Below, piece by piece: positions 42,027-61,886 of a stretch of DNA of 64,000 bases. The first letter of the stretch is position 1. The number at the start of each line of letters is the position of its first letter. This DNA comes from a virus. Its lineage: Duplodnaviria > Caudoviricetes. Made by a program: the position numbers and the translations under genes. The stretch covers positions 2,630-66,629 of the IMG/VR virus record IMGVR_UViG_3300033120_000570; one strand, written 5' to 3'. The notes beneath the pieces were generated by a model. The model saw only the letters and a list, made by a program, of their open reading frames with translations, did not search any database and was not told the DNA's origin.

Positions 42027-42028
42027 AT

Positions 42029-45000
42029 ATGGCAAAAGGAAGATTTTACGGAAATCCTACTATACAAAATAGTAGTCCAGACAACAACACAAGTCCAAAT
42101 GCTGGTAAAAAGCTAAATCCATTAGAATTATATCAAAAAATATCAGACCCTAAAAGAAAACAAACCCCTATGGATTTGTGGTCTAAAGCTGCTGTTGCTA
42201 ACACATTTGAAAACACTAGTGTTGGAAATTCAAAATACGATGAAGGTCTTAATTGGAATACTGATGTCGACACTGAAGATATAGAAGGTTCTATTAATGA
42301 ACATAGATCTAACGAACAATCTGGATTAACACAGTTAGGAGCTGGATTGTTAAGGGCTGGAACTAAAGCTGCTATTGAAGTTGCAAAACTTCCAGGAGTT
42401 ATAAGTGGAATAGCTGCGGCTCCTTTTGCGGAAGAAGGAAAAGGATATGATGTAGCATTTAATAATGCATGGATAAAAGGATTAGACAAAGTAAATGAAG
42501 AAATTAATTCTGAATTTTTACCAGTATATGCTAAAAAAGCAGTCACTGAAGGAAATTTATGGGATAATATTACTTCAACGTCTTTTTGGGCTACAGATGG
42601 AGCTGATGGACTTGGATTTATGCTTGGAATGATGGCTCCTGGAGCAATAATTAGCAAATTAGGAATGGGAGCTAAATTATTAAACGGATCTAGAAAATTA
42701 GCTCAATATGCAGGAATGGCTGAAAAAACAGAATCAGCTGTTAGTGTTTTAAAAGGTCTTGGACTTACCGCAAGATCTATAGACGTAGGTACTGGCGCTG
42801 TAGTTAATACAATAACAGAGGCTGGCGCTGAAGCCAAGGGCGTTGGAGACGATATGGACGGTAAAAAACCTCAATATTTTTCAGAAAATTTTCCAAAAAA
42901 TATAGCTAAATTAAACGTTAATAACGTTCCGGAAATGATCCAAGGAAGTATGCGTCTTGTAAAAAACTTAGACGGAACTCAATCAATGGTTTCTGAAGGA
43001 TTAATCCCAAACCCTGAATTTGAAGTAATAAAAAAACAAGCTTCAGAACTTACTGAAGCTGAGTTTAAAGAGCAAAGAGCTTTAGCCATGAGGGATACTT
43101 TTAAGTCAAACTTAGCTGTTCTTATAGTTCCTAACTTGTTAATGTCAAAAGCTTTATTTGGTAAAAAAGCAGATAAATTGGTTTCTAACTTAGAAAAAAC
43201 AACATTACAAAAAGCTGCTACAAGGGGTGGTAAAATTGTTAAAAGATATGGAAAAGCTTTTGCGTCTGAAGGACTGTTAGAAGAAGGTAGTCAAACAGCT
43301 ATAGAAACCATGTTCACAGACAAAGCAATGCAAAATGAATTAAAAAGAGGTGATGGTTTTGATGGAGGTTTTGTCTCAGGAGGTCTTCAAGACTTTAATT
43401 TAGGAGAAGCTACAGAAGCTTATTCAGACATGATTAATTCTACAGAAGGAGAAAAAGCAATATTTTTAGGAGCTATAATGGGAGCTCCAATGATGTCTTA
43501 TCAGGGAAGAAAAGAAGATGTTTATAATCAAGAAAAAAGCAATAAAATACTTTCAAATATAGATAGCTCAATAAATAGTTTTAATACTATATTTAATAAT
43601 GATATATATAGAAGAGATCCAAATGATAGTTCTAAGTTTCTATATAAAAAAGATGAAAATGGAAACGACACTACAGAAAGACAAATAGACAGAGTAAAGG
43701 CTATAGAAGTTGCAAAATCTTTAAACTATAACGAACAGCAGTCTAGAAGACTTGACTGGGCAATACAAAATGGTAGAACTGAAATTATTGAAGAATTGAG
43801 AGAAAAGGCTATTTTTGATTTAATACAACCTTCTATTTATTATGGGGAAGCAGGTATAGAAGCTTTAACTGAAAAATTAAAAAATTCATCTCAATTTCAA
43901 GAAGTTTTAGATAGAGATTCTGACCCTCAAAATAAAAATAAAAGTAAAGATTTTGTAGATAATGCTTTAAAAGTAGCTTCTTATCTTCAAAAACAAAATG
44001 AAAAGTTTGTAGATTTTGCAGGAGACATAATAGATTTAAACGACGATAGAGCTAGCAAGGAAGATAAGCAAAACTACATAAATCATTTAAACACACAATA
44101 CTTACAAGCTAAATATAATCAATACAACTCAGAGCTAAAACTAAAACATGCTGTAGAAAAAAGGAATTCTATTTTAGAAGAACTTAACATTCAAATTCCT
44201 GTTAATGAAATATTAGAAAATAATAGACAAGTAAACGAGGCCAGGCAAAATAATAAAATTTTAGATGATAATTTAAATGAAATAAAATTATTAGAAGAAT
44301 CTATAACTTCAAATAAAAAAAACATAAATGAGTTGTGGTCCGGCAAAGACAAAATAGATAAATCTTTTAAAGGATATATAGATAGAGTTAAAGGAGCTGA
44401 AGAATCTCAGTCTGACGAAAAAATAGCAAAAGCAAACGAAACTGTAAGTAAAATTAAAAAAGCTAAGAATAAAAAAGAATTAAACGAAGCTTTAGAGGTT
44501 TCTAGCGCAGAGCTAAGCAAAGCTGTTCAGTCACAAACAATAGACGAGGTTAATGATAGCGTAGATCAAGATTCGTCAATAGACAATCTGCAATTAAATT
44601 TAACTAAATTAAAAAGCTTAGGATTATCTTCTAAAAAAGTAAATAAAGTTATCAATAAAATAGAGTCTATATTACAGTCTAAAATTCAAGAAATAGAAGA
44701 TTTTAAAATATTTTTAGAAGAAGCTATTGCTGATCATAATATAAAAAGTGAAAAAATATTATCAGACATTATAGATACTGAAAACAATATAAAAAAATTA
44801 ATATCTGATAGAGAGTTATTAAAAAAATCTTTAAACAATCAAGATAAATCTCCAAGAGGAAGAAACGCTAAAATTCTTAAAGAATTAATAAGAGAAACCA
44901 AAGACGAGTTAGATAGGGTAGAAAAAGAAATTGAATCATTAACTAAGGATAAAAATAATTTAACCAATGATTTAGAAGTCGCTGATAAGGAAATAGAATA

Positions 45001-47644: not shown

Positions 47645-47678
47645 TTAGGATATATGGAATTAATTCTGTATATTTGTA
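47645..47678 (+). promoter_or_regulatory. Variant class I promoter upstream of virion RNAP
   Basis: TTAGGA-TA-TATGGA-N10-TATATTTG with the same 24-nt offset as other copies. Confidence 0.65.
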
Positions 47679-47691
47679 TAAAATATAAAAT

Positions 47692-50600
47692 ATGAGTTGT
47701 ATAAAAGTAACAAAAACAAATGGCGCTCAATCTATATTAATAGATAAGTTAGAAGAAATTTATGGAGACGAACAAAAAGCTGAAAATGCTTATTCGTTTT
47801 TTGATCAAAGTTCAGAGTCATTTATTAATGATTTTGGAGATTATGTTTCTGCTTATGGAAAAAACATTAAAGGCTTTAAAGGAAGGCTTGATGAAAATGG
47901 AGAGCCGAAATTGTTTTATAACGAAACTGCTAAAAAATACTACTACTTAAATAAGGATAGAGAAGAAATTTTCTATCCTTTAAATAGTAAAGGCTTAAGA
48001 GGGGTTTTTAATTATAAACAAATAGACAAAATAGTTTCTAGATTAGCGAATAATTATTTTAAAAAATCAAAATTAAATTTTAATAATATAGATTTTTCTG
48101 CAGGAGAAAAGTTGCCTGATTTAAAACAATATGTTAAAGAAGAAATAGAATCTAAAATAGAGGATTTAAAATCTAAAGGAATAAAAGGAAAACTATCTGC
48201 TAAATTACTTGAAAAATCTTTATCTCATGTAGATGAATATGTAGAAAAAATAGATTTGCTGTTTAAAAAAATGTCAATTGTTAGAATAGATAATGTTGAA
48301 GAAAATGATTTAAATAGCGAGCAAGATGAAATAAAAGACCCTTCATATATGAAGTCTTCTTTTGAATTAGATAGTAAAAGCGCATTATCTTCTGAAATGA
48401 AGATAAGGTTGTCTTTACTGGAAAACGATCAAGATTTAGATCCTGTATGGAATGAAAATACTTTTGTTCCATTTAACGAAGTTCATAGCACTTTACTAAA
48501 ATCTCTTTCTGATCAGGTTGTTCTTGAAGGAGAAGATATGTTTGAAACTTTTAAATCTTTAATAGAAAAAGAGTCTAATAAAAAAACATATTTAAAGGCA
48601 TTACTTTTAAATTTAAGTGACAAGCAATTTAGTAACAACAGTAAAAATCAATTTGTAAAAGCGTTTAATCTACACTCTAATAATTTTTTAGTAACTGAAT
48701 TAAGTGAAAAATCAACTGAAGACGAAAATGGAATTAAAACTCCTATTTTAAGTATAGCTGTAAAACAAATATCCGAGTCTGGATCTAAAAAAAGCATATT
48801 ACTTTCTAATTGGGGAAGTAATTTTCAAAAATATTTTTTAAATAATAGTAATAAAATAACAGAAGGAGCTTTAGAGCAATTAAACGACATAGAGTCTGAA
48901 TTAAAGTCTTTGTCTAAAAAAAGTCAAGTAAAAAATACTGCTGTTTTTTTAGAAAAAAAAGTAAATGAGTATGTTTCTGCTTTAAGAAATCTAGGTGTAG
49001 AAATGTCTGAAAAAGGTATGTTTAATTTTTTAGACAATGACTCTGATCATTTATTATCTATAGACGAACAAATGGACATTTTAAACAGCTCTATTAATAA
49101 AACGCTGGTTTCATTATCTATTGCTAAAAAGAAATACAATTCAGTAAGTAAAGAATTTAAAAATCCATTTAGTTCTGATAAAATATTTACTCAGTTATCA
49201 AAATCTGAGGCTTATTTTTTACAAGAAGGATCTGATGCAAGCATAAGAACTGGTGGAAAAAGCAAATGGCTATATTCTTATCCTTCTTACTTATCGACTA
49301 AAATACTTCAATGGAAAAAAAATCCACAACTACTAGAAGATTTATATAATCAGTCTGCATATACTAAAGGTTCTGCATTAGCTGAATATCTTTTAGCAAA
49401 GGATTTAGATCCCAATTTTGTATATGAAAATGGATATGATTCAGAAGTTAAAAGACTTTCTAAAGAAAGAATTGAAAACTTGCAATTAGGAGTTTTTAGT
49501 ATGTTTCAAAGCACTAATGGGGAATTTAAAAACACAGACGAATTAGCTTTTAGCGACTATATAATAGACAATGTAAATAAAGTATTGTCAAATAGCTTTG
49601 TAAGAACAACAACTCCTGCAGATAAAGGTACTGATTATCAATTAAAAACAGGATTCTTTATAGATTCTTTTAATTATTCTGAAAACGAAGGGAGGGTAAT
49701 TTACACTAATAAAGTAAAAAAAGTTTTTTTTAACTATTTTAATTCAGAAATCAACAGGATTAAAGAAGCTGGACTAGAAGTTGATAAATTAAAAAATTCT
49801 CCTGAAAAACTAACAATAGGATATCACTATAAAGCAGGAACTGAAATTAATTCAAAAAGTGGAAATGCTTTTTTATCTCAATACTTTCCGGATTTGTCAT
49901 TTAATTCAGAATCTGATAACTTTACTGTAAAAGAAATTAAAAAGGCTTTATACGATGATAAAGGAAATTTAAAACATACTTCAGATATAAATAACAACAA
50001 AGAATTAAAAGCTTTTGTTGAAAGATATATTGACACTGTTCTAAATGAAGGCTTTAAAAATATGTACTCTAAATTTGAAGAAGAAGGTATAATATCTTAC
50101 GACGACAATGGGAATGTTTTGCTTTCAAAAATATCTAATAAATTACTTGAAAATTATTTAGAAAACAATTCTAACAATAAGGAAGAAGCTATAAAGGCTA
50201 TAGTGTCAGATTATCATATAAATGGAATTGTCCAAAATATAGAGTATTCTAAACTATTTAGTGGAGATGTTGCTTTTTATAGTGATATGATGGACTATAA
50301 AAAAAGAGTTCCTGCCACATATACTGACGGCCTTCAATTAAGACTTCAAAAAGACGAAGAATACTTTAGAGTAGCTACTATTAATAAAGTAATGGTTAAA
50401 GCTCCTTATTACGAAGAATTAGTAAAACTTGTAGGCGCTGAAGACGCTTCTGCATATGAAAGAATTAACAGTGCAGATGCTCAAGCATGGATTACTCCTG
50501 CTAGATGGAAATTTTTAACAGAAAGACTTGGTAAGTGGTCAAAAGACCACGATTCTGTTTATTCTAAAATGATTTCTAATAATCCTGAAAAATACACATT

Positions 50601-53600
50601 AAAAGAGTTAAAGATAGCTGCACAGCCTTTAAAAGGAGTTTATTTCTATATGAATGGAAAAGTTCCTACATTTCTTAAATACTCTCAAGCTGTACTTACT
50701 AATAGCATTAGTAATGGAAACGGGCTTGGAGTTATGCTTGCGCAAATGAACAAACAGGGAGTTGACGAGTTAATTACTCTTGATGGTTTTAAGGCCGGTT
50801 CTCCTACACCTACAACGATTCACGATAGCGAAGGAAATGTTCTTGATAATATATCTTTCAATACAAAAGACTTATCAAATAGAGGATGGAAACTTCAGCA
50901 AGATTTACCTGTAAAAACTACTAAACAAACAGACGTTGGTAGTCAGATACAAAAAAATATATACAATGGATTAATTTTTAATACTAAATTAGCCGGGTTT
51001 GTTTTAGATGGCAAAGAGACTAATGGTCAAAAAATTATAGATAATTTAGTAGACGTGGTAGGAGCGTTGACCGAGCAAGGATTAAAAGATCTTGTTAAAG
51101 AATTTAAAATAGGAAAAGACGGCAAGATACAAAATGCAAAAGGTCTTTACAACTCACTTATTAGCGAACTTGAAAAAAGAGATGGTTCTAAAAACATAAT
51201 TGACGCCCTTAAAAAGGAGACGGCATTATACGGAATACCTCAATCTATAGAAAAAATAACAAATGTGTTTTCTTCAATAGTAAATGACCGTTTAATAAAA
51301 ATAAAAACAAACGGAGGTTCATTTATTCAATTGTCTAACTTTGGAATATCAAAACAAGAAGGTAATGATAAAGGAGTAGTATGGCATCCAGAAATAGAAA
51401 ATAACGGAAAAACATATGAGCCTAGAAAATACGTAGACGAAAATGGAAGAGTTAGAATTGAGCCTGCAGGAATATTAATATCTGCCTCCGTAATATCTAA
51501 ATACATTCCGAACTATAGAGATTATAGTGCTAAAGAACTTTTCGTAAGTTATAAAGAAGGTGCTCCTATAATAGATAAAAGAATATCTGAAAATATAATA
51601 GGATATAGAATTCCTAATCAAGGACTATCATCTAACGACTCTTTAAAAATAATAGGATTACTTCCTGAAGAAAACGGAGATACCGTTGTAGCTTACACTG
51701 GTATAACCACAAAAACAGGTTCTGATTTCGATATTGACAAAATGTTTTTAATGATAGCTAACTTTACTAAAAGTAAAGAAAATGATAGGTTGACATACAC
51801 TGAGTTTAATCCAGAATTAGCCAACAACAAGCAATCTAAAGAAGCTTTACAAAATAGGCTTATAGAATTGTATAAATCTGTTTTAACCCATCCAAAAGTC
51901 ATTAAAAACGTAATGAAGCCTCTTGATATAAAAACAATAGAAAGAGAGATTAAGTACTTACTTCCTTCAAAAACTTCATCGGCTATGTATCATTTTGATT
52001 CATACAACGACATTGAATTAAGGTATCAATTTCTAGGTGGTAAATTGTTAGTAGGAATGGAAGCAAATGCAATGGTTGACGTTAACAGAGTTGGAAATTT
52101 AAGTCTAAACAATTATTCTTTAGGGTGGGGATATGTAAATGACAAAGGGGATACTTTGTTAGATAAAGAATATTCTGAAAATTTATCAGAAGAAGATCTT
52201 AATTATTATTTAAATAATATTGATTTAAAAAGCGAAGAAGAAAAAAATAAAATAAAAAAAGAAATTGTAGATGTTAGACTAGCTGATTCTCTTACGCAAG
52301 TGCTTAGTGGGGCAGTAGATATAGCTAAAGATCCTTTTATTACAAGAGGAAATTGGTCTACAAGTACTACTAATATAGGAAATTTACTTTTAAGAGCTGG
52401 AGCTCACCCGTTATATACGGTTTCTTTTTTAGCGCAACCTATTATAAAAGACTTTATAAGTTACCAAAGGTCTTCCGAATCTATAACTAACAAAAGTTCT
52501 GGAGATTTAAAAGATAAATTTAGAAGAAATATTGTTATAAAGAATTTAAAAAAATTAGAAGAAAGCGTTAACTATAATTCAGGAACTTCATTGACTACAA
52601 TATATCAAAAATTTGTAAAAACCGAAGCTCATACAGTTAAAAGACTTGTTGATGAAAAAGCTAAACAATTTTTATATAAAATAATAGATAATAAATTTTT
52701 AGAAGACGAAAATGCTGATAAAATAATTTCAACAATCCTTTCAGAACACAATAAAGCCTTTAGCTCTAGTAAAATAGATGTAATGGACAAGTCTAAGTAC
52801 AACTTAGAGTATTTTAGAAATCAAATTAAGGAAACCTCCGACGGAGACTTTCAGCTAGCTATTCTTGATAAATTCTTTGAGCTGCAAAGAATAAGTAAAG
52901 GAGTTAAAGAAAATGTAGATGTTTCTAAATTAGATACAAACGGAATGGGTAAGAATATAAATTCATTATTTATTACATTTAACTTAAAACAACATATATT
53001 AAATAAAGAAAATAAAGGAGAAACTGGAGTTCTAAATGGGTTTGAGTCTAAATTTGATAAAACTCAACTTGGAAAATATCTTAGATCAATGAGAAATGTA
53101 TTAAAAGTAGTTAGATCAAATCCTATTTTATTCCCACAAGCTCAGCCAGATGTTCAAGATATGTTTAATGAAATATCTCAAGACCTATATAATACTCCTG
53201 CTTTTAATATTGAGTTAATGGATGATTTGGAAAAAGCATATTATACTTATACAATGTCTAAATTTGATCCATTTAACATGGAAAAAGAAGAAATTTCATC
53301 AATACTTACAAATCTTCCAAAAGAATTGGCTGAATTTAAAGATAAAAATAAAAATAAATTTTTAATATTAGATGAATTACAAATAAATTATGCTAAAGCT
53401 GAAAAGTCAATATTTCTAAATAACAGAAAAAAATCTCCTGATTTTGAAGAAATGTTTACTGATTCTTGGAGAGATTTAAGAGTTTCTAATCCAAAATTAG
53501 CAGAAGACTTAATAAAGTATTCTTTTTTAACTTCTGGATTTAAAATGCATTCAAAACAGTTCTACACATACATTCCAAATGAATATATGTTGCAAGAAGA

Positions 53601-56600
53601 TATAAATTCATATATAAGAAGCTTAGATAAGGAAGATAAATCTGATTTTATAGATAAATTTTATTTAAACAACTCAAGTAGTTATAAATATGTTTCTAGC
53701 GTGTTTAATGACGAAATTGATACTGAAAACCAAGGTAGTGGATTTACATTAAAAGAAGCAGGAAAATCAAGATATTATTTAAGGTTGAGTAAATCTACAA
53801 TATATAAATTAGAAGGTTATAATACTGAAAATAAAGCTGTATATACTAGAGTTGAAAAACTTGGAGCCGAAATGTCTGGAGTTAAAATTCCTGAGTACGG
53901 AGAAAAATTTACTAAAAAGAAAATTTCTGAAATAGAAGAAGAAAAAAGTGAAGGATTTAAAGTAGATGATAAATATATTTCTGAATTAAAATCAACAGTA
54001 GTTACTCAAAGAGATAAGTTTAACCCTGATTTTAAATTAGAAGAAGGTTCTAGTTTAGTTGAAGATTCTTTTGAAGAGTTGTCAGATCAGGCAGATTCTG
54101 TAAAGGAGGATTTATTTGAAGATAATTTTAATAAAGATTATGAAATAATTCAAGCTGAAGACGGAACGTTTGACGTTCTTCATGTAGAAGATGGTCTTAT
54201 AGGTGAATATGCTGAAAATATAGAAGCCGCTCAAAAAATTATAGAAAAAGATAAATTAAGTAGATTACCTTCTAAAGAAAAAGAAGTTTCTAATATAACT
54301 TCTATGTCTGAAATAACTAATCATTCTGGAGGAGCTTATGGAGCTGATACGGCATGGGATCAAGTTGGTAGAGAATTTGGGGTTATAAATCAAATGCATT
54401 ATAGAGATGCTGGAAATGAAAGATTATCTCAAACTTTAAAAAATAAAAAAGTAGAAGCTACTATTTTATCTAAAGAACAAATGGATATTGCAAGGTCTGA
54501 AGTTGAAAAACTTTTGGGTAAAAAATATCCTGACACTTTACAAGGCAATTTACAAGTTAGAAATTATTATCAAGTAGCTAATTCTGACGCTGTATTTGCA
54601 ATTGCAAAATTAGATACAGATTTTATGTTTACTGCTAGATCTGTATTTGGAGGAACTAATACAGCTGTTCAATTAGGAATAAAACTAAATAAGCCAGTTC
54701 ATGTTTTTGATTTAACTACAAAAGAATGGTATAAGTGGAATGGTTCTGAATTTTCAAAAACAGAAACTCCAACTTTAACCAAAAACTTTGCAGGAGTAGG
54801 CACAAGAGATATTGAAAACTATAGCGTAAAAGACAAAGAGGGTAATTGGGTATCTAGAAAAGAATATGTTGGTCAAAAAACTGAAGCTTTGGCTATTAAT
54901 GCTATTAGAGAAGTTTATAAAAAAACACAAGAAAGCATTTCTAAAGAAAACTTACCAATTAAAGAATTAAACAATGAAGCTGAAGTTGAAAAAACACCTG
55001 CTAAACAAGGTCAATTTGCAAAATACAATGGTCAGACTTATTTAATTACAAAAGAGAATTCTAATGGAACTTTTCAAATATATAACCCAACATTAGAAGG
55101 TGTTAATTCAAAATTATCTGTATCTAAAGATAATTTAGAAGTTTTAAAATCTTCAGCAAAAGTTATTAACTATAAAGGATCTGATTATTTAGTTACTCCA
55201 GCAAACACTATAATATCTACTATTTCAAATAAAGAAATGAAGTGGGATGCTAAAAACGGAGATAGGATTAATATTTTAAGTTTAGCCGAAAATGGAATAT
55301 TATCTCCAGAAGTAAAAGAAATACAAGTAAATACTAATAAAACATTTACTCCTGTAGTTAAAGAAAGTCCTTTTGTGCCGGCAAACAAACAGCAAAAAAA
55401 TGCCGTAATAGCTATTAAAGATTTTATAAGTAACTCTAATACTCAATACTCGGAATTCTTTATTTTAGAAGGTAAAGCCGGAACTGGCAAAACCACGTTA
55501 ATAGAAGAAGCTATTTCAGACGCAGTTAATCAGGGTAAAAAAGTAATAGTAGGCGCTTTGTCTCATAAAGCAAAAAGAGTTTTATCTGAAAAACTAAACA
55601 AAAGGTATAAAAAAGGAGAAATAGAAAGTGGAACTATTGCTGGACTACTTGGAATGAAGTTAGATCCAGAAACTCAAGAGTTTATCAAAGACTACGATAA
55701 TCCTTACGCTGACGATGCGCCAATAGAAGACGCTGATGTAATAATAATTGACGAAGCGTCAATGGTTGATGAAGGAACTATTTGGACGATAATGGACTCT
55801 AAAAAACGTAATGCTAAAGTTATATTTTTAGGAGACAGAGGGCAATTACCTCCTATAAGAAGTATCCAATCTTATATATTACTTTTAACTAAAAATAAAC
55901 CAGAAGGATGGAAAGAGGTTGTTGCTGAACTAAAAGACTTAAAAGATCAAAAAATAAATGGATCTACAAAAATGGGGCTTGTTCATAAACTTGTAAATAA
56001 ATATAAATTTGATGATTTAATAAGCGGCGCTTTTGAAGGAAAAAATAAAGCTTCTTTAACTGAAAGAGTTAGGCAAGGAGAAGACTCTCCAATACTTCCT
56101 TTTGCTGATTATTATTGGAATAACTCAGAAAATGAAGAAACTGTAGCAAGGCCGGTTCCTCAAAAAGCCATGAAAGATTCCTTAACTAATAAAGGAAATT
56201 TGATTTTTACAGAAAGTTTTGAAGATGCTTTTGATAGCGTTTCTCAAGTATTTAAAAAAGCTGTTCAAGAAAAAAACCTAGACGCAATTAAAATAGTTAC
56301 TTTTAGAAACGCTACTAGAAAAAATTACAATAAAAAAATAAGAAAAGAAGTTTTTGGAGATGAAGCTGAAAAATTTGAAAAAGGTGATTTTATTATGTTT
56401 CAAAACGCATTCCCTGTTAGCAAGGACGTTTCATTTTCTAATAGTGATGAGTTTTCAATAGAATCTGCTAAAAAAACAGAACATCTTGGGTACGAGGTTT
56501 ATAATATAGGTGTTAAGTATGTAAATAATGACAAAACTAAAGGTATAACAACTGAGTATTTTAAAGTTTTATCAGACAAGGATAAAGACAGGTTTGCAGA

Positions 56601-56979
56601 AGATGTTGATAAAAGAATGAAAGAAGCTGCTAGAGAAAAAAATCCTTCTGATAGAAGAGCAAAATTCAAGGCTGCTTATAAATTTAAAGAAACATTTGCA
56701 GATATTGATTATTCTTACGCAATAACCTCTCATAAATCACAAGGCTCAGGTTACGGAGTTTCTGTAGTTGATGTTGAAGACATTTCTAGCGTAACAATGA
56801 ACACTAGTAAAACTAAATCAAGAAGTAATTATACAGCTATTACAAGAGCTATAAATACAGCTTTAATAATAACAAAAGGAGTTGAAACTAGTAAAAAGAA
56901 TATTAGGAAAGCTTTGAATGTTGATAAAAAATCAAAGAGAGAAGGAACTGGAAATCCTAAAGATATGGGGTGCATTTAA
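47692..56979 (+). CDS. Virion-packaged RNA polymerase fused to SLOG-like domain and SF1B (Dda/RecD-like) helicase
   Basis: YRIPNQ and GSDFDIDK (51724-51738) catalytic motif; NHSGGAYGAD..FAGVGTR; GKAGTGKTT, DEASMV, GDRGQLPP, YAITSHKSQGS, YTAITRA. Confidence 0.9.
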   Translation: MSCIKVTKTNGAQSILIDKLEEIYGDEQKAENAYSFFDQSSESFINDFGDYVSAYGKNIKGFKGRLDENGEPKLFYNETAKKYYYLNKDREEIFYPLNSKGLRGVFNYKQIDKIVSRLANNYFKKSKLNFNNIDFSAGEKLPDLKQYVKEEIESKIEDLKSKGIKGKLSAKLLEKSLSHVDEYVEKIDLLFKKMSIVRIDNVEENDLNSEQDEIKDPSYMKSSFELDSKSALSSEMKIRLSLLENDQDLDPVWNENTFVPFNEVHSTLLKSLSDQVVLEGEDMFETFKSLIEKESNKKTYLKALLLNLSDKQFSNNSKNQFVKAFNLHSNNFLVTELSEKSTEDENGIKTPILSIAVKQISESGSKKSILLSNWGSNFQKYFLNNSNKITEGALEQLNDIESELKSLSKKSQVKNTAVFLEKKVNEYVSALRNLGVEMSEKGMFNFLDNDSDHLLSIDEQMDILNSSINKTLVSLSIAKKKYNSVSKEFKNPFSSDKIFTQLSKSEAYFLQEGSDASIRTGGKSKWLYSYPSYLSTKILQWKKNPQLLEDLYNQSAYTKGSALAEYLLAKDLDPNFVYENGYDSEVKRLSKERIENLQLGVFSMFQSTNGEFKNTDELAFSDYIIDNVNKVLSNSFVRTTTPADKGTDYQLKTGFFIDSFNYSENEGRVIYTNKVKKVFFNYFNSEINRIKEAGLEVDKLKNSPEKLTIGYHYKAGTEINSKSGNAFLSQYFPDLSFNSESDNFTVKEIKKALYDDKGNLKHTSDINNNKELKAFVERYIDTVLNEGFKNMYSKFEEEGIISYDDNGNVLLSKISNKLLENYLENNSNNKEEAIKAIVSDYHINGIVQNIEYSKLFSGDVAFYSDMMDYKKRVPATYTDGLQLRLQKDEEYFRVATINKVMVKAPYYEELVKLVGAEDASAYERINSADAQAWITPARWKFLTERLGKWSKDHDSVYSKMISNNPEKYTLKELKIAAQPLKGVYFYMNGKVPTFLKYSQAVLTNSISNGNGLGVMLAQMNKQGVDELITLDGFKAGSPTPTTIHDSEGNVLDNISFNTKDLSNRGWKLQQDLPVKTTKQTDVGSQIQKNIYNGLIFNTKLAGFVLDGKETNGQKIIDNLVDVVGALTEQGLKDLVKEFKIGKDGKIQNAKGLYNSLISELEKRDGSKNIIDALKKETALYGIPQSIEKITNVFSSIVNDRLIKIKTNGGSFIQLSNFGISKQEGNDKGVVWHPEIENNGKTYEPRKYVDENGRVRIEPAGILISASVISKYIPNYRDYSAKELFVSYKEGAPIIDKRISENIIGYRIPNQGLSSNDSLKIIGLLPEENGDTVVAYTGITTKTGSDFDIDKMFLMIANFTKSKENDRLTYTEFNPELANNKQSKEALQNRLIELYKSVLTHPKVIKNVMKPLDIKTIEREIKYLLPSKTSSAMYHFDSYNDIELRYQFLGGKLLVGMEANAMVDVNRVGNLSLNNYSLGWGYVNDKGDTLLDKEYSENLSEEDLNYYLNNIDLKSEEEKNKIKKEIVDVRLADSLTQVLSGAVDIAKDPFITRGNWSTSTTNIGNLLLRAGAHPLYTVSFLAQPIIKDFISYQRSSESITNKSSGDLKDKFRRNIVIKNLKKLEESVNYNSGTSLTTIYQKFVKTEAHTVKRLVDEKAKQFLYKIIDNKFLEDENADKIISTILSEHNKAFSSSKIDVMDKSKYNLEYFRNQIKETSDGDFQLAILDKFFELQRISKGVKENVDVSKLDTNGMGKNINSLFITFNLKQHILNKENKGETGVLNGFESKFDKTQLGKYLRSMRNVLKVVRSNPILFPQAQPDVQDMFNEISQDLYNTPAFNIELMDDLEKAYYTYTMSKFDPFNMEKEEISSILTNLPKELAEFKDKNKNKFLILDELQINYAKAEKSIFLNNRKKSPDFEEMFTDSWRDLRVSNPKLAEDLIKYSFLTSGFKMHSKQFYTYIPNEYMLQEDINSYIRSLDKEDKSDFIDKFYLNNSSSYKYVSSVFNDEIDTENQGSGFTLKEAGKSRYYLRLSKSTIYKLEGYNTENKAVYTRVEKLGAEMSGVKIPEYGEKFTKKKISEIEEEKSEGFKVDDKYISELKSTVVTQRDKFNPDFKLEEGSSLVEDSFEELSDQADSVKEDLFEDNFNKDYEIIQAEDGTFDVLHVEDGLIGEYAENIEAAQKIIEKDKLSRLPSKEKEVSNITSMSEITNHSGGAYGADTAWDQVGREFGVINQMHYRDAGNERLSQTLKNKKVEATILSKEQMDIARSEVEKLLGKKYPDTLQGNLQVRNYYQVANSDAVFAIAKLDTDFMFTARSVFGGTNTAVQLGIKLNKPVHVFDLTTKEWYKWNGSEFSKTETPTLTKNFAGVGTRDIENYSVKDKEGNWVSRKEYVGQKTEALAINAIREVYKKTQESISKENLPIKELNNEAEVEKTPAKQGQFAKYNGQTYLITKENSNGTFQIYNPTLEGVNSKLSVSKDNLEVLKSSAKVINYKGSDYLVTPANTIISTISNKEMKWDAKNGDRINILSLAENGILSPEVKEIQVNTNKTFTPVVKESPFVPANKQQKNAVIAIKDFISNSNTQYSEFFILEGKAGTGKTTLIEEAISDAVNQGKKVIVGALSHKAKRVLSEKLNKRYKKGEIESGTIAGLLGMKLDPETQEFIKDYDNPYADDAPIEDADVIIIDEASMVDEGTIWTIMDSKKRNAKVIFLGDRGQLPPIRSIQSYILLLTKNKPEGWKEVVAELKDLKDQKINGSTKMGLVHKLVNKYKFDDLISGAFEGKNKASLTERVRQGEDSPILPFADYYWNNSENEETVARPVPQKAMKDSLTNKGNLIFTESFEDAFDSVSQVFKKAVQEKNLDAIKIVTFRNATRKNYNKKIRKEVFGDEAEKFEKGDFIMFQNAFPVSKDVSFSNSDEFSIESAKKTEHLGYEVYNIGVKYVNNDKTKGITTEYFKVLSDKDKDRFAEDVDKRMKEAAREKNPSDRRAKFKAAYKFKETFADIDYSYAITSHKSQGSGYGVSVVDVEDISSVTMNTSKTKSRSNYTAITRAINTALIITKGVETSKKNIRKALNVDKKSKREGTGNPKDMGCI

Positions 56980-56995
56980 TAATAAAATATAAAAT

Positions 56996-57478
56996 ATGAA
57001 ATTTATAAACGAAGAAGTAATAAAATTACTTAATTACAGGATTCAACAAGAACAATACAGTTCTAAAGTTTACGAGCAAATGAGTGCATGGTTACAAAAT
57101 GCATCATTTTTAAACTCTTCAAAAATTTGGGCTAAGTTTGCTTCTGAAGAATTAACACATGCCGAGTTGGCTAAAGACTATTTATTGTCTTTTAACATAA
57201 TGCCGGAACTAATGGTTATTGAAGAAGCTCCTAATGATTTCAAAGACATTAAAGAAATTATTCAAGCTACTTTTGATCACGAAGTAATGGTTACAGAACA
57301 ATGCTTAGCTTTAACGAGTAAAGCTATGGATTTAAAAGATTGGACGTTATTTGCTCTTGGTCAAAAATACAATGAAATACAAAGAGTTGAGATGGATGAA
57401 GTTTACAATTTGGTAGATATATCTAATTTAAGCAACGATAATTTAATTTTAGATAAATATATCGGAGATAATTTTTAA
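56996..57478 (+). CDS. ftnA: Non-haem ferritin (FtnA-like)
   Basis: LNYRIQQEQYSS..Y, EELTH, DHE, IQRVE ferroxidase-centre spacing; 160 aa. Confidence 0.8.
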   Translation: MKFINEEVIKLLNYRIQQEQYSSKVYEQMSAWLQNASFLNSSKIWAKFASEELTHAELAKDYLLSFNIMPELMVIEEAPNDFKDIKEIIQATFDHEVMVTEQCLALTSKAMDLKDWTLFALGQKYNEIQRVEMDEVYNLVDISNLSNDNLILDKYIGDNF

Positions 57479-57520: not shown

Positions 57521-60500
57521 ATGAGTTGTAGCTTTCAATATGTTGAAGATGCTTTAAGAGCATCTAGTCCTGAAGAGGCGGACAGGTTAAATGAAAAAGG
57601 TATAGAAACTTGGAAAGAACTTAAAAATTCAAATTTATTTTCTATAAATAAGAATGAAGAATATGGTTTTAGTCGAGAAGGAACAAAACAAAGAGCAAGA
57701 CAAGAATCTTTTATTTCTGAGCTAAATAAAGACATAGAGTTTGTATTTAATGAAGACGATGAAGTTTATGTTGATTTACTTCAATTGACAGATAAAATTC
57801 TTGACAACGTTCCAAAAGAAAAAGAAGTTATTGAGTCTGAAAACAAATACAATTTATCAGATCTAATTGACGATAATAATTCATTACCGTTGTTTAGTGA
57901 AGAATCAGTTTATTACGATTTAAATAACGAAACTCCTACTTTTGTTTTATTTGGAGAAAACGAGCAATATAATATTCATAGCGCAAGCGATGTTTTAAAT
58001 AATATATTAGACAGTTTTAGCGATAGATTTTCTAGTGACGCTAAAATGCTTTTAAATAGAGCTGAAATTTTATTAAAAAAGTCTAAGGCTACTGTTAAGA
58101 TAATTAGCGCAGATAATTTTAATGGAAAAAATAACTTAATGAGATATGACGCTCTTACTAATGAGATATTGGTTAGAGACGATTCTAATGAATACTCTGT
58201 AGAAGATATGGTTTCTTCTTTTTTGCACGAAGCAACGCATTCTGTAACCGCAAGAGCGTATATAGACCCAATTACGTTTGAAGAAAAAGATTTTAAAAAA
58301 TTTATAGACAAAGCTTTTTCTGAATTTAAAAAATACGCTACAGATAAAGACAGGGAAAGATACGGCTTTACTAACGAGTTAGAGTTTATATCAGAGTTAT
58401 TTACTAATCCTAATTTTGAAAGAGTTTTAAGAAGAATAGAGTTTACTGTTAACGAGGGTAAAAACAAAAACAAAGCTATGTCTAGTTTTTTTTCCGAATT
58501 AAATGATTTTATTAGAAGGCTTTTTGGAGCAAAAAAAACAGAAGTTGTAGACGCTTTAATAGAATCTATAACAAGAATAGCTTCTTCCGAACAGTCAGAG
58601 TATAGTGTTGACAAAAGATTCTTTTTAGACAAAATAAAAGAAGACGAAGAAAATGTTGATAATGAGTTAAAATTTATAAAACCAACTTTAGTTAGTTTTG
58701 AAGATAGACTGATGAATTTAATAGGTAAGGCAAAAGATAATATATCGAATGTAAGATCCATAACGATTAAATCAAAAGCTACTACAAATAAAAAAGACCA
58801 TAGAGTTCATCTAGAAAATTTAAATAAATTAATAGAAGAAATGGATTCTCTTTCTGAACTTGAAAAATTAAAAGTTATTGTTCAATATACAAAAACAATG
58901 GCAAAAACCGTATTTCAAGTAAGAAAAGGAATGGATAAAATAAATAAAGAAGCTGGCACAAATAAAGATATTGGGAATTACAAATTAGTAGAAAAGTACG
59001 AAAGCTATTTAGCATCCTATGATTTAATAGTTGACATAAGGGACACTGTAGCGGCTTCTTCTAGAGTAAAACTGTCTGAAGAAGATATTTTGCATATTGA
59101 AGAAATTAAAAAAATATTACAAGAAATAACAAGTGTTCACGATAATTTAATAGCTGAATTTAAAGTATTTAAAAGGGAGGAGGCTATTAAGATAGTATCG
59201 TCTCCAGAATACAACACTCAAGTAGAAACTGATCATAAAAAAAGACTATATAAAGAACATTATGATTTAAAAATAAAAGGAGAATCTAAAGAAGAGTATG
59301 CTAATAGAATGCTTAACACAAGAGACAAAGATTTATACAAGAATGATTTAGTTTCGACTGCAGAAAAAATAGTTAGCGATCCTTCTTTTGATATAAGTAG
59401 TTTTAATAAAAGTTGGGGAGATGCATTAAATACCAATAGCAAACTGGCTCAAATAGTTGTAAATATATTTAGTTCAGTAAGAGACAGAATACTTTCAAAA
59501 TACAAATCTGTTGAAATGAATTTAAGTAATTTATTTGACGATGTAATTAAAGAAAAAGGAAATAAGCCTCCTTCAAAGATGTATCAAAATATTTATGAAA
59601 AAGACAGTAAAGGGAACTTTTTTTTTAAAGGAAGATATAAAATAGAATTTAGAGATAAGTATTTAGACGAATACATGCCTCTAAAAGAAGCTGCTGAAGA
59701 AATTTTAAATAAATTTATCGAAAAAGGTCTTACCAGAAAAGAAGCTAGGACTGAAAAAGATTATAAAGATGCAAATGCTTTAGCTTTAGCTTGGATGGCA
59801 AAACACACAAGATCTGAACGAGCTGATATTAGCGGAAGAACTTGGCTTCCTAATAAAGAATATTTAAACGATGAAGTTACCGGGATTGATGCTCAGGTTT
59901 TAAAAGAGGCTATAGCTATGGCTAAATTTTCCCATAAATCTACATACGGAAAACAATCTTTAATAAAAAAAACAGGTCAAGTTGAATTTTATAGTTTTCC
60001 TTCTATAACAAAATCCGCATTTGAAAGAACTATGGAAGGAGACTTTAAAGGAAGTGTTCAAGATATAAAAGATAATTTTACAAAAATTAGACCTGATGAC
60101 GTTGGTTATGGAGAAGCTATTGATAAAAAAGGAGAAACATTAAAAAGTGTCAAAATACATTTTAGAGGCAAACTTGACGAAAGTCAGCAATCTTTAGATG
60201 TTTTGAGCCTTATTAGAAGCGAATATCTAAATGCTATTAGTTACAGAGAAAAGAAGGACTCTGAAAGCTCTTTATTATTAATGGCAGATATATCTAGAAA
60301 TAAAAATTATTTTCAAAAATCAAGCAAAACAGGCCTTCCTCTTGTAAATTTATTTAATAAAAACGTTCCTGCTGTAGAAATTCCAGGCGAATTTTCAAAT
60401 GAATATGAAAGAATTAAAGGGATGTTGGAAAGGAATCTTTATGACACAATGAGTGTTCATGGAGGAACTATATTAGGGGCAGACGTTAATAAGTTAACTA

Positions 60501-61837
60501 ACTTTATAAACGGAACCGCAGCCTCTGTTGCGATGTCGTTCAATTTAGCTTCCGGCACTGCTAACGTAATGAATGGGTTTACTCAATTACTTATTGAAGC
60601 TGGTGGCGGTAATTTATTTAAAATTAATAACCTTTTAAAAGCAGAAGCAAAATATACTCAAGATTTGCCAAATATTATAAAAGACATGTCGAGTCCTGTA
60701 AAAAAATCATTTTCCAATCAATTGCTTGAAATGTACGATGTTTTTGGAGGGTTTGATCCTTCTACACAGGAGTTTATTAGAAATAGTATTGCTAAAAAAA
60801 TAGCTTCTAGAAAATCAATGAATGGTCTTAATGAAATGGGAGAGCACGCAATGAATGCTGTTGTTACTATGGCTGTTTTAGATTCTTTAAAAGTAATGAA
60901 TAAGGATTTTAAACACATTGATAAAGACGGCAATATAGTAAGCGAAGACAAGGCGGCTTCTCTTTTAGATATGTTAAAGATGGATTCTGAAGGTAAATTA
61001 GTTATGGATAATAAGGTTAAATTTACTAAACACAACTTAACTCTTGAATATCAAAAAGGAGGTAAAATGCATGTTAATCTGCTTATTAAAAATAAAGTGT
61101 TTGACTTATTTGGAGTTTACGATCCTGCATTTAAAAATGAAGTTTCAAAGCATTGGTTAGGAAAATCAGTAATGATGTTTAAAAATTATTTTTTATCAGG
61201 AATGGATTATAGGTACACCGGAATCGCCACTGCTTTAAAGAAAAAAGAAGATTTAACAGAAGATGAATTAAATTATAGTTCTGCTCAAAAAGAATATATC
61301 GAAGGAATTTATACTACGTTTATAAGATTTGTTCCTGCGTTAAAAGGGTTGCAGTTAATGTATGCTAAAGATGTTTATAATAATCTTAGTGATTATGAAA
61401 AATCAAATTTAAAAAAAGCAACTATAGAATTAATGCTTACCGCTGTTATACTACCTGCCGTAGGAAACCTTCTTATGATGGCTGGATCGGACAACGAAGA
61501 TGATGATGCTTTGTGGTTTGCTATATATGAATTTAGAAGACTAGAATCTGAATTATCTCAGTTTAGAAATCCTATAGAAGCAACAAAATTAATATCGAAT
61601 CCAGTAGCCGGAGTTAGGTTTATTCAAAATGGAATTTCTTTTTTATATGAATTAGGAACTCCAATAAATTTTATTCCTAATGAGAAAGAAAATATAATTT
61701 CTTATTTAGATGAAGATGCTAAAGGAAATAACAAGCTTTATAAGAAAGGAAAGAAAATAGCGCCAATTATTACTCAATTTGGTGAAGACTCATTTTTTAA
61801 AGATTATAAAAAGCTAAATAGCTTAATAGATAAATAA
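57521..61837 (+). CDS. Large cargo protein with zincin-like metalloprotease domain
   Basis: HEATH (HExxH) plus downstream ELEFISELFTNPNF; hydrophobic C-terminal helices; single Cys at position 3. Confidence 0.8.
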   Translation: MSCSFQYVEDALRASSPEEADRLNEKGIETWKELKNSNLFSINKNEEYGFSREGTKQRARQESFISELNKDIEFVFNEDDEVYVDLLQLTDKILDNVPKEKEVIESENKYNLSDLIDDNNSLPLFSEESVYYDLNNETPTFVLFGENEQYNIHSASDVLNNILDSFSDRFSSDAKMLLNRAEILLKKSKATVKIISADNFNGKNNLMRYDALTNEILVRDDSNEYSVEDMVSSFLHEATHSVTARAYIDPITFEEKDFKKFIDKAFSEFKKYATDKDRERYGFTNELEFISELFTNPNFERVLRRIEFTVNEGKNKNKAMSSFFSELNDFIRRLFGAKKTEVVDALIESITRIASSEQSEYSVDKRFFLDKIKEDEENVDNELKFIKPTLVSFEDRLMNLIGKAKDNISNVRSITIKSKATTNKKDHRVHLENLNKLIEEMDSLSELEKLKVIVQYTKTMAKTVFQVRKGMDKINKEAGTNKDIGNYKLVEKYESYLASYDLIVDIRDTVAASSRVKLSEEDILHIEEIKKILQEITSVHDNLIAEFKVFKREEAIKIVSSPEYNTQVETDHKKRLYKEHYDLKIKGESKEEYANRMLNTRDKDLYKNDLVSTAEKIVSDPSFDISSFNKSWGDALNTNSKLAQIVVNIFSSVRDRILSKYKSVEMNLSNLFDDVIKEKGNKPPSKMYQNIYEKDSKGNFFFKGRYKIEFRDKYLDEYMPLKEAAEEILNKFIEKGLTRKEARTEKDYKDANALALAWMAKHTRSERADISGRTWLPNKEYLNDEVTGIDAQVLKEAIAMAKFSHKSTYGKQSLIKKTGQVEFYSFPSITKSAFERTMEGDFKGSVQDIKDNFTKIRPDDVGYGEAIDKKGETLKSVKIHFRGKLDESQQSLDVLSLIRSEYLNAISYREKKDSESSLLLMADISRNKNYFQKSSKTGLPLVNLFNKNVPAVEIPGEFSNEYERIKGMLERNLYDTMSVHGGTILGADVNKLTNFINGTAASVAMSFNLASGTANVMNGFTQLLIEAGGGNLFKINNLLKAEAKYTQDLPNIIKDMSSPVKKSFSNQLLEMYDVFGGFDPSTQEFIRNSIAKKIASRKSMNGLNEMGEHAMNAVVTMAVLDSLKVMNKDFKHIDKDGNIVSEDKAASLLDMLKMDSEGKLVMDNKVKFTKHNLTLEYQKGGKMHVNLLIKNKVFDLFGVYDPAFKNEVSKHWLGKSVMMFKNYFLSGMDYRYTGIATALKKKEDLTEDELNYSSAQKEYIEGIYTTFIRFVPALKGLQLMYAKDVYNNLSDYEKSNLKKATIELMLTAVILPAVGNLLMMAGSDNEDDDALWFAIYEFRRLESELSQFRNPIEATKLISNPVAGVRFIQNGISFLYELGTPINFIPNEKENIISYLDEDAKGNNKLYKKGKKIAPIITQFGEDSFFKDYKKLNSLIDK

Positions 61838-61850
61838 AACAAAGGTCAAA

Positions 61851-61886
61851 AAAAAGCCACTATACAATTAAGTATAGTGGCTTTTT
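61851..61886. terminator. Bidirectional terminator between convergent modules
   Basis: Perfect 15-bp inverted repeat AAAAAGCCACTATAC-AATTAA-GTATAGTGGCTTTTT. Confidence 0.9.

Follow-up and report, generated by a model that had tools for sequence, protein, structure and literature searches.

A crassvirus-type virion RNA polymerase with an optional C-terminal extension carrying a SLOG-superfamily domain and a Dda-like helicase

Introduction

No phages are more abundant in the human gut than crassviruses, which are common in marine Bacteroidota as well. The window analysed here, a stretch of 64,000 nucleotides from an uncultured IMG/VR virus contig, contains a single open reading frame of 3095 amino acids (47692..56979, + strand), in which a crAss-type virion RNA polymerase (vRNAP) is extended C-terminally by about 1,000 residues. 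Why should such a polymerase be joined to a SLOG-superfamily domain and a helicase? The first-pass annotation of the sequence had proposed that the helicase melts the incoming duplex while the SLOG domain holds single-stranded DNA or acts on nucleotides, the whole forming a self-contained machine for transcription and genome uptake, or else that host proteins are cleared from the entering DNA. We ask here whether the extension is better understood as part of a transcription machine or as exchangeable cargo on a polymerase chassis.

Results

The 47692-56979 frame comprises three units, namely a polymerase body, a SLOG domain and a helicase, and the extension itself consists, in order, of a linker, the SLOG domain, a twin-barrel module and the Dda-like helicase. 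That these belong to one uninterrupted frame, with no evident sequencing error fusing them, had been stated at the outset and is borne out by a survey of SLOG and SF1B helicase fusions to crAss vRNAPs, which recovered the continuous architecture in 19 or more close relatives and in hundreds of metagenomic giant proteins, on many independent contigs. The chance that faulty sequencing or assembly fused two or three genes is accordingly negligible: this reading is already refuted by the recurrence of the fusion in close and many distant relatives from independent samples, and no support for it was found.

Genes upstream of the frame match the Pfam families crAss_MUZ (muzzle) and crAss_CARG1 (cargo protein 1), and the gene order in the window (muzzle, cargo protein 1, gp67-like, vRNAP, gp65-like) is that of phage phi14:2. 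The g067-g066-g065 genes of phi14:2, with which the locus is syntenic, are virion genes verified by mass spectrometry in that phage. A megablast search of GenBank phages with the polymerase gene gave zero matches. The genome to which the window belongs is about 67% complete, so that a second helicase may be encoded elsewhere in this phage. An TATATTTG element found by pattern search at 47669..47676 (+ strand), 16 nt ahead of the first codon, is a possible Bacteroidetes-type -7 promoter box, from which the frame could be transcribed. Separate expression of the helicase from an internal promoter is not supported: in two weak scans, the pattern search found no TATATTTG on the + strand within the frame, and sigma-70-like matches in it were no commoner than in shuffled sequences.

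The polymerase body (aa 1-2116; 47692..54039, + strand) corresponds to the whole of phi14:2 gp66 (PDB 6VR4, E 5e-217), BLASTP aligning aa 1-2149 of gp66 with aa 1-2109 of the frame at about 30% identity over the whole length. The catalytic DFDID motif, already named in the annotation, lies at aa 1345-1349 (51724..51738, + strand) and is invariant in 19 relatives, in which R2107, F2114 and L2116 are the last invariant residues of the body; its last motif reads RDKFNPxFxL. With homology across the two-barrel body, the DFDxD motif and a position in the cargo block, the N-terminal part of the frame is, by its sequence, a complete homologue of the gp66 vRNAP. According to the literature, and as the annotation had it, gp66 transcribes single-stranded or denatured DNA well in vitro and double-stranded DNA poorly. 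Whereas gp66 ends after the body, at 2180 aa, the protein of the window adds 986 aa beyond the gp66 equivalent. These begin with the acidic linker noticed earlier (aa 2117-2199; 54040..54288, + strand), which has 26 D/E against 8 K/R in 83 residues and is poorly conserved, being 59-65% identical in relatives that share 69-87% identity with this protein over the polymerase body.

The linker leads to a SLOG-superfamily domain of cpYpsA-like type (aa 2200-2433; 54289..54990, + strand), which occupies what proved to be a variable cassette slot. The glycine-rich pattern from which a SLOG domain had been proposed is matched by the structure predicted with AF2 (pLDDT 95), which displays a Rossmannoid fold with an N-terminal Gly-rich loop and a second, GGT-type loop; an invariant R, the invariant GGT and a near-invariant GGAxGxD are conserved in the family. 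In a wide VIA search the nine best structural matches were all SLOG-superfamily proteins, headed by 3imk (Z 12.3, rmsd 3.4, 146 aligned) and followed by DprA, TM1055, YpsA, MCP, ShosA and TT1887 at Z 6-7, with DprA structures at Z 6.4-7.0 and LOG structures at Z 5-6.6. ThsA is absent from both VIA lists, an absence that does not count against a ligand of the cADPR type. Foldseek of the same model against the PDB returned nothing at E<=0.001, short-chain dehydrogenases heading its list.

At the level of sequence profiles, PHROG 768 ('DprA-like') matched aa 2204-2359 with an E of 1.7e-10, and it is the only DprA-like family to match; Pfam DprA (PF02481) gave no match at E<=10. The domain also misses the gathering score of Pfam cpYpsA (PF12694; 13 bits versus 26.2, E 0.087). 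Despite this sub-threshold score cpYpsA is structurally the nearest family, through 3imk, and the add-on of one relative (L021) passes the Pfam model with 27.6 bits. LOG phosphoribohydrolases possess a PGGxGTxxE motif with a catalytic Glu. The domain studied here reads GGTNTAVQ, with a family consensus of GGTxxAVQ, and comparison by eye finds the acidic residue after the Thr to be absent. An IMG/VR scan with the SLOG domain as a single-protein query yielded no confirmed relative, and SLOG relatives in IMG/VR were recovered by an alignment-based scan instead.

Next comes a 'mid' module (aa 2434-2535; 54991..55296, + strand), modelled as two small beta-barrel-like units and a helix (AF2 pLDDT about 80-90), for which searches gave no Pfam match, no ESM Atlas lead and no known family. 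It is absent from free-standing homologues of the helicase, which at 455-490 aa are as large as Dda and are common in other phages, and it occurs without a helicase in three proteins (P0071, P0077, P0096). A flexible linker (aa 2536-2560; 55297..55371, + strand; pLDDT <50 at model residues 103-120) separates it from the helicase.

The helicase (aa 2561-3080; 55372..56931, + strand) is of the SF1B Dda-like type. PHROG 325 ('Dda-like helicase') matched aa 2544-3071 with an E of 1.5e-71 and Pfam AAA_30 with an E of 1e-21, and the sequence matches in the PDB were 9kwf, 8jx6, RecD, Dda and RecD2. The AF2 model (pLDDT 88) has the overall Dda-type fold, with RecA-like domains 1A and 2A and accessory elements 1B and 2B, and in Foldseek the Dda structures outranked RecD2, RecD and Pif1 (DSH9 8jx6, E 2e-26; T4 Dda 3UPU, E 8e-25, TMt 0.77; 9kwf, TMt 0.81). 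The SF1B motif set reported previously is complete, with motif I/Walker A GKAGTGKTT exactly at 55471 (55471..55497), motif II DEASM (55750-55764), motif III GDRGQLPP (55831-55854), motif IV ERVRQ (56062-56076), motif V HKSQGS (56731-56748) and motif VI YTAITRA (56830-56850), all on the + strand. Since motifs I to VI are all invariant in the 19 relatives, the helicase is predicted to be active. The insert described after motif III as about 55 aa long is real, albeit closer to 50 aa (aa 2724-2774; 55861..56013, + strand; three helices, pLDDT 70-82), and it is lineage-specific, being found in seven of the 19 close relatives (P0001-P0006, P0012) and absent or short in the other 12. The frame closes with a tail (56932..56976, + strand) containing the invariant Cys3094; all close relatives have a Cys 1-5 residues before the end, and gp66 terminates in ...QECK.

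The fused helicase is 26% identical to KP06_gp14, the 'SF1 helicase' of the crAssphage replication block, and may be a relocated version of it. In the helicase tree (FastTree only, midpoint-rooted) many clades contain fused as well as free forms, which points to several gains or splits.

Only two cysteines are present in the entire frame, at aa 3 and aa 3094. The median number of cysteines was zero in 22 of 26 fused-only helicase clades, the corresponding figure for free-standing clades being 4 of 16 (p 2e-5), and cysteines were lacking altogether from 91 of 93 fused SLOG domains versus 48 of 87 free-standing ones. That the fused helicase and SLOG domain are Cys-poor, like the rest of the cargo protein, suggests that they are packaged and ejected too. 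Co-delivery of the extension with the polymerase is plausible in view of the g067-g066-g065 synteny, the Cys depletion, the lack of an internal TATATTTG on the coding strand and the preference of gp66 for single-stranded DNA, which would make a melting helicase a reasonable helper. Some free-standing homologues are Cys-free as well, and the Cys depletion is correlative.

Comparison with relatives bears directly on whether the extension is indispensable. In six relatives, whose genomes are 91-100% complete and whose vRNAP bodies are 39-49% identical, a Dda-like helicase is missing from the entire genome, and a seventh near-complete relative without the fusion has only a marginal Dda-like match of 51 positions; the existence of near-complete, helicase-free relatives implies that the helicase is dispensable. 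In fusion carriers, the fused copy is the only Dda-like helicase of the genome. In close relatives the slot after the first linker holds SLOG, NADAR, DUF7831 or AlkB, alone or combined, and it can also be empty. Thus, P0001 and P0005, with RNAP bodies 80-87% identical, have SLOG and DUF7831, respectively; P0002 and P0006, with linkers 79% identical, have SLOG and NADAR; P0010 has AlkB plus SLOG; and the slot is empty in P0014 and P0016. The SLOG domains of P0003 and P0012 share 82% identity despite their distant bodies, and one SLOG allele has passed from one lineage to another. Slot cassettes that are so far uncharacterised occur in P0004, P0017 and L027.

Slot content and helicase vary independently across relatives. 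Among relatives from IMG/VR the add-ons range from none through NADAR with DUF7831, DUF7831, cpYpsA or SLOG only to the mid module and helicase with or without SLOG; a helicase without SLOG is found in 10 of the close-clade proteins listed, and SLOG without a helicase in L022/L026. Among giant proteins even the order of domains varies, helicase-SLOG, SLOG-RNAP-helicase and helicase-RNAP all being found, and in the giants P0021-P0026 the SLOG-mid-helicase block is 35-48% identical to that of the window, with an RNAP core only 21-26% identical. Judged from these comparisons, both add-ons are optional and modular. The protein also has the features of a polyvalent protein: it is multidomain, it is encoded in a virion gene block, and its domain content varies between relatives.

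Discussion

We consider it on balance probable that the frame encodes a polyvalent injected cargo protein, in which a phi14:2-like crassvirus vRNAP is the chassis and the add-on at its C-terminus is modular. The whole chain would be made late, packaged and ejected together with the DNA. The SLOG domain might then bind or cleave a nucleotide derived from NAD or ADP-ribose, for example a TIR/Thoeris-type signal, before phage genes are expressed, a class of task that it would share with the NADAR domain that replaces it in relatives. The helicase, using ATP, would move 5'->3' along the entering genome, opening the duplex and stripping bound proteins; the opened DNA could provide a template for the polymerase with its preference for single strands, and the helicase might in addition shield the DNA. 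It would thus be an accessory to transcription and not an essential part. Of the mechanism proposed in the first-pass annotation, the identities of the domains are retained and co-delivery is plausible; a self-contained transcription and uptake machine does not agree with the comparisons among relatives, the add-ons being optional and exchangeable. The alternatives named there, sensing or cleavage of nucleotides and removal of host proteins, may still apply.

In the integrated form of that proposal, the helicase would be an obligatory partner that melts promoters or pulls DNA for the vRNAP, and a DprA-like SLOG domain would hold the displaced strand. We regard this as unlikely. It would account for the single-stranded or denatured template that gp66 requires in vitro, for the covalent linkage of polymerase and helicase, the latter being the sole Dda-like gene in the carriers, and for the preservation of the SLOG-mid-helicase block in P0021-P0026, and DprA is indeed among the structural matches of the SLOG domain. 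However, near-complete members of the same family, as well as phi14:2 with its gp66, manage without such a helicase, the helicase and SLOG each occur without the other, and NADAR or DUF7831 stands in the place of SLOG in otherwise near-identical proteins. The closest fold, moreover, is cpYpsA and not DprA, by the Z-scores given above. A nearest fold of cpYpsA type, with its nucleotide pocket, in a slot with swappable content speaks less for a holder of single-stranded DNA than for an exchangeable counter-defence module acting on nucleotides or ADP-ribose, and the SLOG domain is probably a counter-defence module of the NAD/ADP-ribose type. For viral YpsA-clade SLOG and NADAR domains, which are often packaged, processing of immune signals derived from ADPr has been predicted (Iyer et al. 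2022). AlkB and DUF7831, which are not obviously concerned with ADP-ribose chemistry, share the same slot, so that the theme may be broader and include, for instance, reversal of nucleic-acid damage.

Alternatively, the SLOG domain may sense an NAD/ADPr-derived signal and switch the adjacent helicase, the output being DNA repair or anti-restriction. Exactly this was proposed for the sporadic SLOG-SF1 helicase fusions noted in phages (Iyer et al. 2022), and in several distant giants SLOG, mid module and helicase stay together as one block; yet in the close clade the helicase is paired with NADAR, DUF7831, AlkB or no cassette at all, the order of the domains is not fixed among giants, and SLOG and helicase are kept apart by a separate module and a disordered linker, which makes regulation of this kind quite improbable. 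Somewhat more improbable again is that the frame encodes a polyprotein cut at the acidic linker, releasing the helicase, with or without SLOG, as a replication or recombination enzyme resembling T4 Dda, whether packaged or not. Cleavage of fused crAss cargo polyproteins has been suggested as probable (Drobysheva et al.), a zincin-like protease is encoded nearby, the modules are flanked by acidic and disordered linkers, and free-standing homologues of the helicase are common. Against cleavage, the conserved terminal Cys is now found after the helicase, at the new C-terminus, the fused domains are Cys-depleted like cargo, and the junctions showed no conserved cleavage motif; a location in the late cargo operon, where the gene has no promoter-like element inside it, would also offer poor timing for a replication helicase.

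Returning to the chassis model, it is tempting to extend it to crassviruses at large. The C-terminus of the vRNAP may be a general plug-in site, at which SLOG, NADAR, DUF7831, AlkB, the twin-barrel module and the Dda-like helicase are recombined between the body and the Cys tail, disarming nucleotide-signal or DNA-modifying defences before phage genes are read; we would place the likelihood of this generalization a little short of even. If it were true, Cys loss would mark phage domains adapted for ejection, a slot occupant that has lost its cysteines would provide a genomic rule for finding new counter-defence domains, and DUF7831, the 'mid' module and the cassettes of P0004, P0017 and L027 would be such domains. 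A swappable carrier of pre-expression enzymes would also explain the large size and variability of vRNAP genes, and would give a reason, open to testing, for the poor performance of the purified phi14:2 enzyme on double-stranded DNA when some relatives come with a helicase of their own. For the first minutes in a defended host, the add-ons look like optional pre-loaded tools, common in uncultured relatives.

Since the domains, the idea of polyvalent proteins and public crAss fusions were already known, the finding extends known biology and does not constitute a new principle. Public GenBank crAss genomes already carry such fusions. In GenBank/RefSeq, the gut Suoliviridae giants cr118_1 (4946 aa) and cr50_1 (4774 aa), labelled 'DNA helicase', combine a crAss-type RNAP core with a C-terminal Dda-like helicase (PHROG 325, E 6e-83 and 1e-64), and cr109_1 (4328 aa) and cr130_1 (5801 aa), labelled 'DprA-like', have a C-terminal SLOG domain (PHROG 768) in the same CDS as the RNAP core, that of cr130_1 being 56% identical to the SLOG domain of the window. 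In these listed giants, however, the whole three-gene block is fused, helicase or SLOG is present but not both in the order of the window, the RNAP cores are only 23-26% identical to that of the window, and two require TAG=Q recoding. In the papers covered by the literature search, no discussion of a helicase or SLOG domain on crAss vRNAPs was found.

Polyvalent proteins (Iyer et al. 2017) are large, virion-delivered multidomain proteins with variable effectors, helicases included, thought to act on incoming DNA; among them are fusions of the N4 vRNAP (MPTase/ART) and P1 DarB (methylase and SF2 helicase). The chassis here is instead a two-barrel crAss-type RNAP, the helicase is SF1B Dda-like and not SWI2/SNF2 or UvrD, and a methylase is absent. 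On an unrelated chassis, the N4-type vRNAP of Klebsiella phage Pylas harbours the same SLOG family at 42% identity. With the viral YpsA-clade SLOG proteins (Iyer et al. 2022) and 3imk (cpYpsA, 'molybdenum carrier') the SLOG domain shares its fold and Gly-rich loops, and the partners also agree, NADAR occurring in the relatives' slot and DUF4326, ART-PolyVal and AlkB being fused to short SLOG homologues; the present domain differs in being embedded in a polymerase instead of free-standing, and it passes no Pfam model. The helicase has all SF1B motifs and the fold of T4 Dda, DSH9 and Leptospirillum Dda (3UPU, 8JX6, 9KWF; TM 0.77-0.81), but unlike free Dda it is fused to a predicted virion protein, is preceded by a twin-barrel module, contains the 50-aa insert and is Cys-free. 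As for phi14:2 itself, DFDID, gene order and terminal Cys are shared, and the window differs in having a ferritin-like gene between its RNAP and gp65-like genes.

Results

The window's 64 kb come from an IMG/VR virus record of 66.6 kb with an estimated completeness of 67% (CheckV); its source is a crassvirus. Pfam matches mark a crassvirus muzzle protein (32541–36560) and cargo protein 1 (37381–40176), the latter followed by a gp67-like ORF of 1880 aa (42002–47644), the virion RNA polymerase (vRNAP) ORF of 3095 aa (47692–56979), a 160-aa ferritin-like ORF of the Dps/rubrerythrin type (56996–57478, + strand; Pfam Ferritin, E 2.8e-15; PHROG 16594) and a gp65-like ORF of 1438 aa (57521–61837). 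This order matches g067–g066–g065 of Cellulophaga phage phi14:2, whose products have all three been annotated as virion proteins from MS/MS; phi14:2, however, has no gene where the ferritin-like gene lies in the cargo operon, between the vRNAP and gp65-like genes. A TATATTTG box (47669–47676), 16 nt 5′ of the vRNAP start, and a terminator-like hairpin with a 15-bp stem directly 3′ of the gp65-like gene (61851–61886) suggest joint transcription of the vRNAP, ferritin-like and gp65-like genes as a single unit.

The vRNAP matches the sequence of the phi14:2 gp66 crystal structure (6VR4) with E 5e-217. Since its residues 1–2109 align by BLASTP with residues 1–2149 of the 2180 of gp66, the polymerase body, with the DFDID motif at aa 1345–1349, is a complete gp66 equivalent, and the 986 aa beyond it are additional. 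An acidic linker (aa 2117–2199; D/E at 26 of 83 residues) separates the body from three folded units: a SLOG domain, a mid module and a Dda-like SF1B helicase.

The first-pass annotation had read a SLOG pattern in this ORF, and this is borne out. Residues 2200–2433 match PHROG 768 (‘DprA-like’) with E 1.7e-10, the Pfam cpYpsA family giving an E of only 0.087, and an AlphaFold model based on an alignment with 55 free-standing homologues reached a pLDDT of 95. The best match in an exhaustive structural comparison was 3imk (Z 12.3, rmsd 3.4, 146 aligned), a cpYpsA-type ‘molybdenum carrier’, followed at Z 5.9–7.0 by DprA (three entries), TM1055, YpsA, MCP, ShosA and TT1887, SLOG proteins throughout. 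Across the homologue alignment a GGAxGxD loop is conserved, and an Arg and a GGT loop are invariant. The mid module (aa 2434–2535; 54991–55296, + strand) consists of two small beta-rich (barrel) units and a helix, and searches of Pfam, PHROG and the ESM Atlas found no family for it. It adjoins SLOG or the helicase, occurs by itself C-terminally in further giant metagenomic proteins (P0071, P0077, P0096) and is internal in one more (P0023).

The helicase (aa 2561–3080) matches PHROG 325 with E 1.5e-71; its PDB sequence matches include 9kwf, DSH9, RecD, T4 Dda and RecD2. Foldseek searches with its AF2 model (pLDDT 88) retrieved DSH9 (E 2e-26) and T4 Dda (E 8e-25), with TM scores of 0.77–0.81 relative to the targets. 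All six SF1B motifs previously claimed are in place, and they are invariant across 19 relatives. The insert described after motif III is also present, although it measures about 50 aa rather than ~55; it forms three helices in the AF2 model and is restricted to P0001–P0006 and P0012.

A search limited to proteins of 1700–5400 aa gave at least 325 giants with the C-terminal region in common, most of them encoded on 90–130-kb contigs. In the close clade that 19 of these form (RNAP bodies about 50–87% identical to the window's) the mid module and helicase stand at the C-terminal end of 19/19 proteins. Like fusions are found in GenBank/RefSeq crAss genomes: cr118_1 (4946 aa) and cr50_1 (4774 aa) carry a C-terminal Dda-like helicase, and the giants of cr109_1 and cr130_1 a C-terminal SLOG domain, that of cr130_1 being 56% identical to the window's; the automatic product names of all four derive from these domains. 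Such recurrence in giants, close relatives and GenBank/RefSeq genomes rules out an assembly artefact, and with it the sequencing error joining two genes that had been considered earlier. Under table 11 the vRNAP CDSs of cr109_1 (L005, 1129–14115) and cr130_1 (L007, 1–17406) contain 70 and 74 in-frame stops, respectively, and the former reads clean through with TAG=Q; stop-codon recoding has already been described in some crAss-like phages.

Within the close clade, the stretch between body and mid module is a variable slot. It holds SLOG (P0001–3, P0007–13), DUF7831 (P0005, P0020), NADAR (P0006), an AlkB-type oxygenase alone or with SLOG (P0010, P0012, P0018, P0019) or inserts of unknown kind (P0004, P0017), or is empty (P0014, P0016). 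Near-identical bodies carry different cassettes, as in P0001 and P0005 (bodies 80–87% identical), and the SLOG of P0003 shares 82% identity with the P0012 SLOG and just 45% with the P0001 SLOG, even though the P0001 body is far closer to P0003. These sequence relationships point to exchange of cassettes. In phi14:2-type IMG/VR relatives, whose vRNAP ORFs range in length from 2191 to 3047 aa, the tail bears no add-on or carries NADAR plus DUF7831, DUF7831, a Pfam-level cpYpsA, SLOG alone, mid module plus helicase, or SLOG, mid module and helicase. Remoter giants display these modules in other orders, for example with the helicase before the RNAP, the helicase followed by SLOG, or SLOG before the RNAP.

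The vRNAP contains just two cysteines, Cys 3 and Cys 3094 (of 3095 residues); the sole cysteine of the gp67-like protein is residue 1878 of 1880, and that of the gp65-like protein is residue 3. Cysteines of these three giant cargo proteins thus lie almost solely at the ends, a pattern kept in all close relatives.

Discussion

The first-pass annotation saw in the fusion a self-contained machine in which the helicase melts the incoming duplex for the polymerase. Opening of the duplex remains plausible, as gp66 transcription works well on ssDNA and denatured templates but poorly on dsDNA; indispensability of the helicase, in contrast, is contradicted by its distribution. Whole-record searches found no Dda-like helicase anywhere in six fusion-less relatives that are 91–100% complete; a seventh gave a marginal match of 51 positions only. 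Both complete relatives with the fusion have a single Dda-like helicase, the fused one. The near-complete genomes without it show that the polymerase does not need the helicase, which is an accessory that some lineages have gained. Fused and free-standing forms are intermixed in many clades of a FastTree phylogeny of 228 helicase domains (midpoint-rooted only), which indicates repeated fusion or fission.

The near-terminal Cys is retained behind the helicase in all close relatives, as at the end of gp66 (...QECK), so the add-on was inserted upstream of a conserved Cys tail. Fused helicase domains have a median of 0 Cys (zero in 65/112), as against 3 in free-standing ones (zero in 5/107). Counted per homogeneous tree clade, the median is 0 in 22/26 fused versus 4/16 free clades (Mann–Whitney p 2e-5), and SLOG domains without Cys number 91/93 fused versus 48/87 free. 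This depletion is correlative and fits domains under the same constraints as an ejected protein.

According to Iyer et al. (2022), viral SLOG domains belong mostly to the YpsA-like clade, are predicted to process, with NADAR, Macro and DUF4326, immune signals derived from ADP-ribose, and are often packaged, at times fused to SF1 helicases. Polyvalent injected proteins were defined by Iyer et al. (2017); among them are N4 vRNAP fusions and the helicase-bearing P1 DarB. Combined with this literature, the modularity, the dispensability of the helicase and the Cys evidence make a polyvalent cargo protein the best-supported reading of the vRNAP with its add-on. The SLOG cassette would then be a counter-defence module that acts on nucleotides or ADP-ribose and can be exchanged, and the helicase an optional motor acting on the entering genome, where it may unwind duplex on behalf of the polymerase, remove bound proteins, or do both; here packaging, ejection, the SLOG ligand and the helicase substrate are what we infer. 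The parts and the polyvalent concept are already known, and such fusions are present in public genomes; a literature search of incomplete coverage found no paper on helicase or SLOG additions to crAss-type vRNAPs, nor on a variable slot in them.

DUF7831 (PF25176) is the commonest add-on in helicase-less relatives, once adjoining NADAR; in the IMG/VR relatives L011, L014, L023 and L025 it lies within the last 300–660 aa of the vRNAP ORF. This family is thus far a strong candidate among possible new counter-defence domains. The vRNAP of Klebsiella phage Pylas (L003, MH899585, 9046–20505) carries the same SLOG family (aa 984–1112, 42% identity), inserted in the N-terminal third of an N4-type enzyme whose fold is unrelated to that of the crAss polymerase: a convergent use of the vRNAP as carrier.
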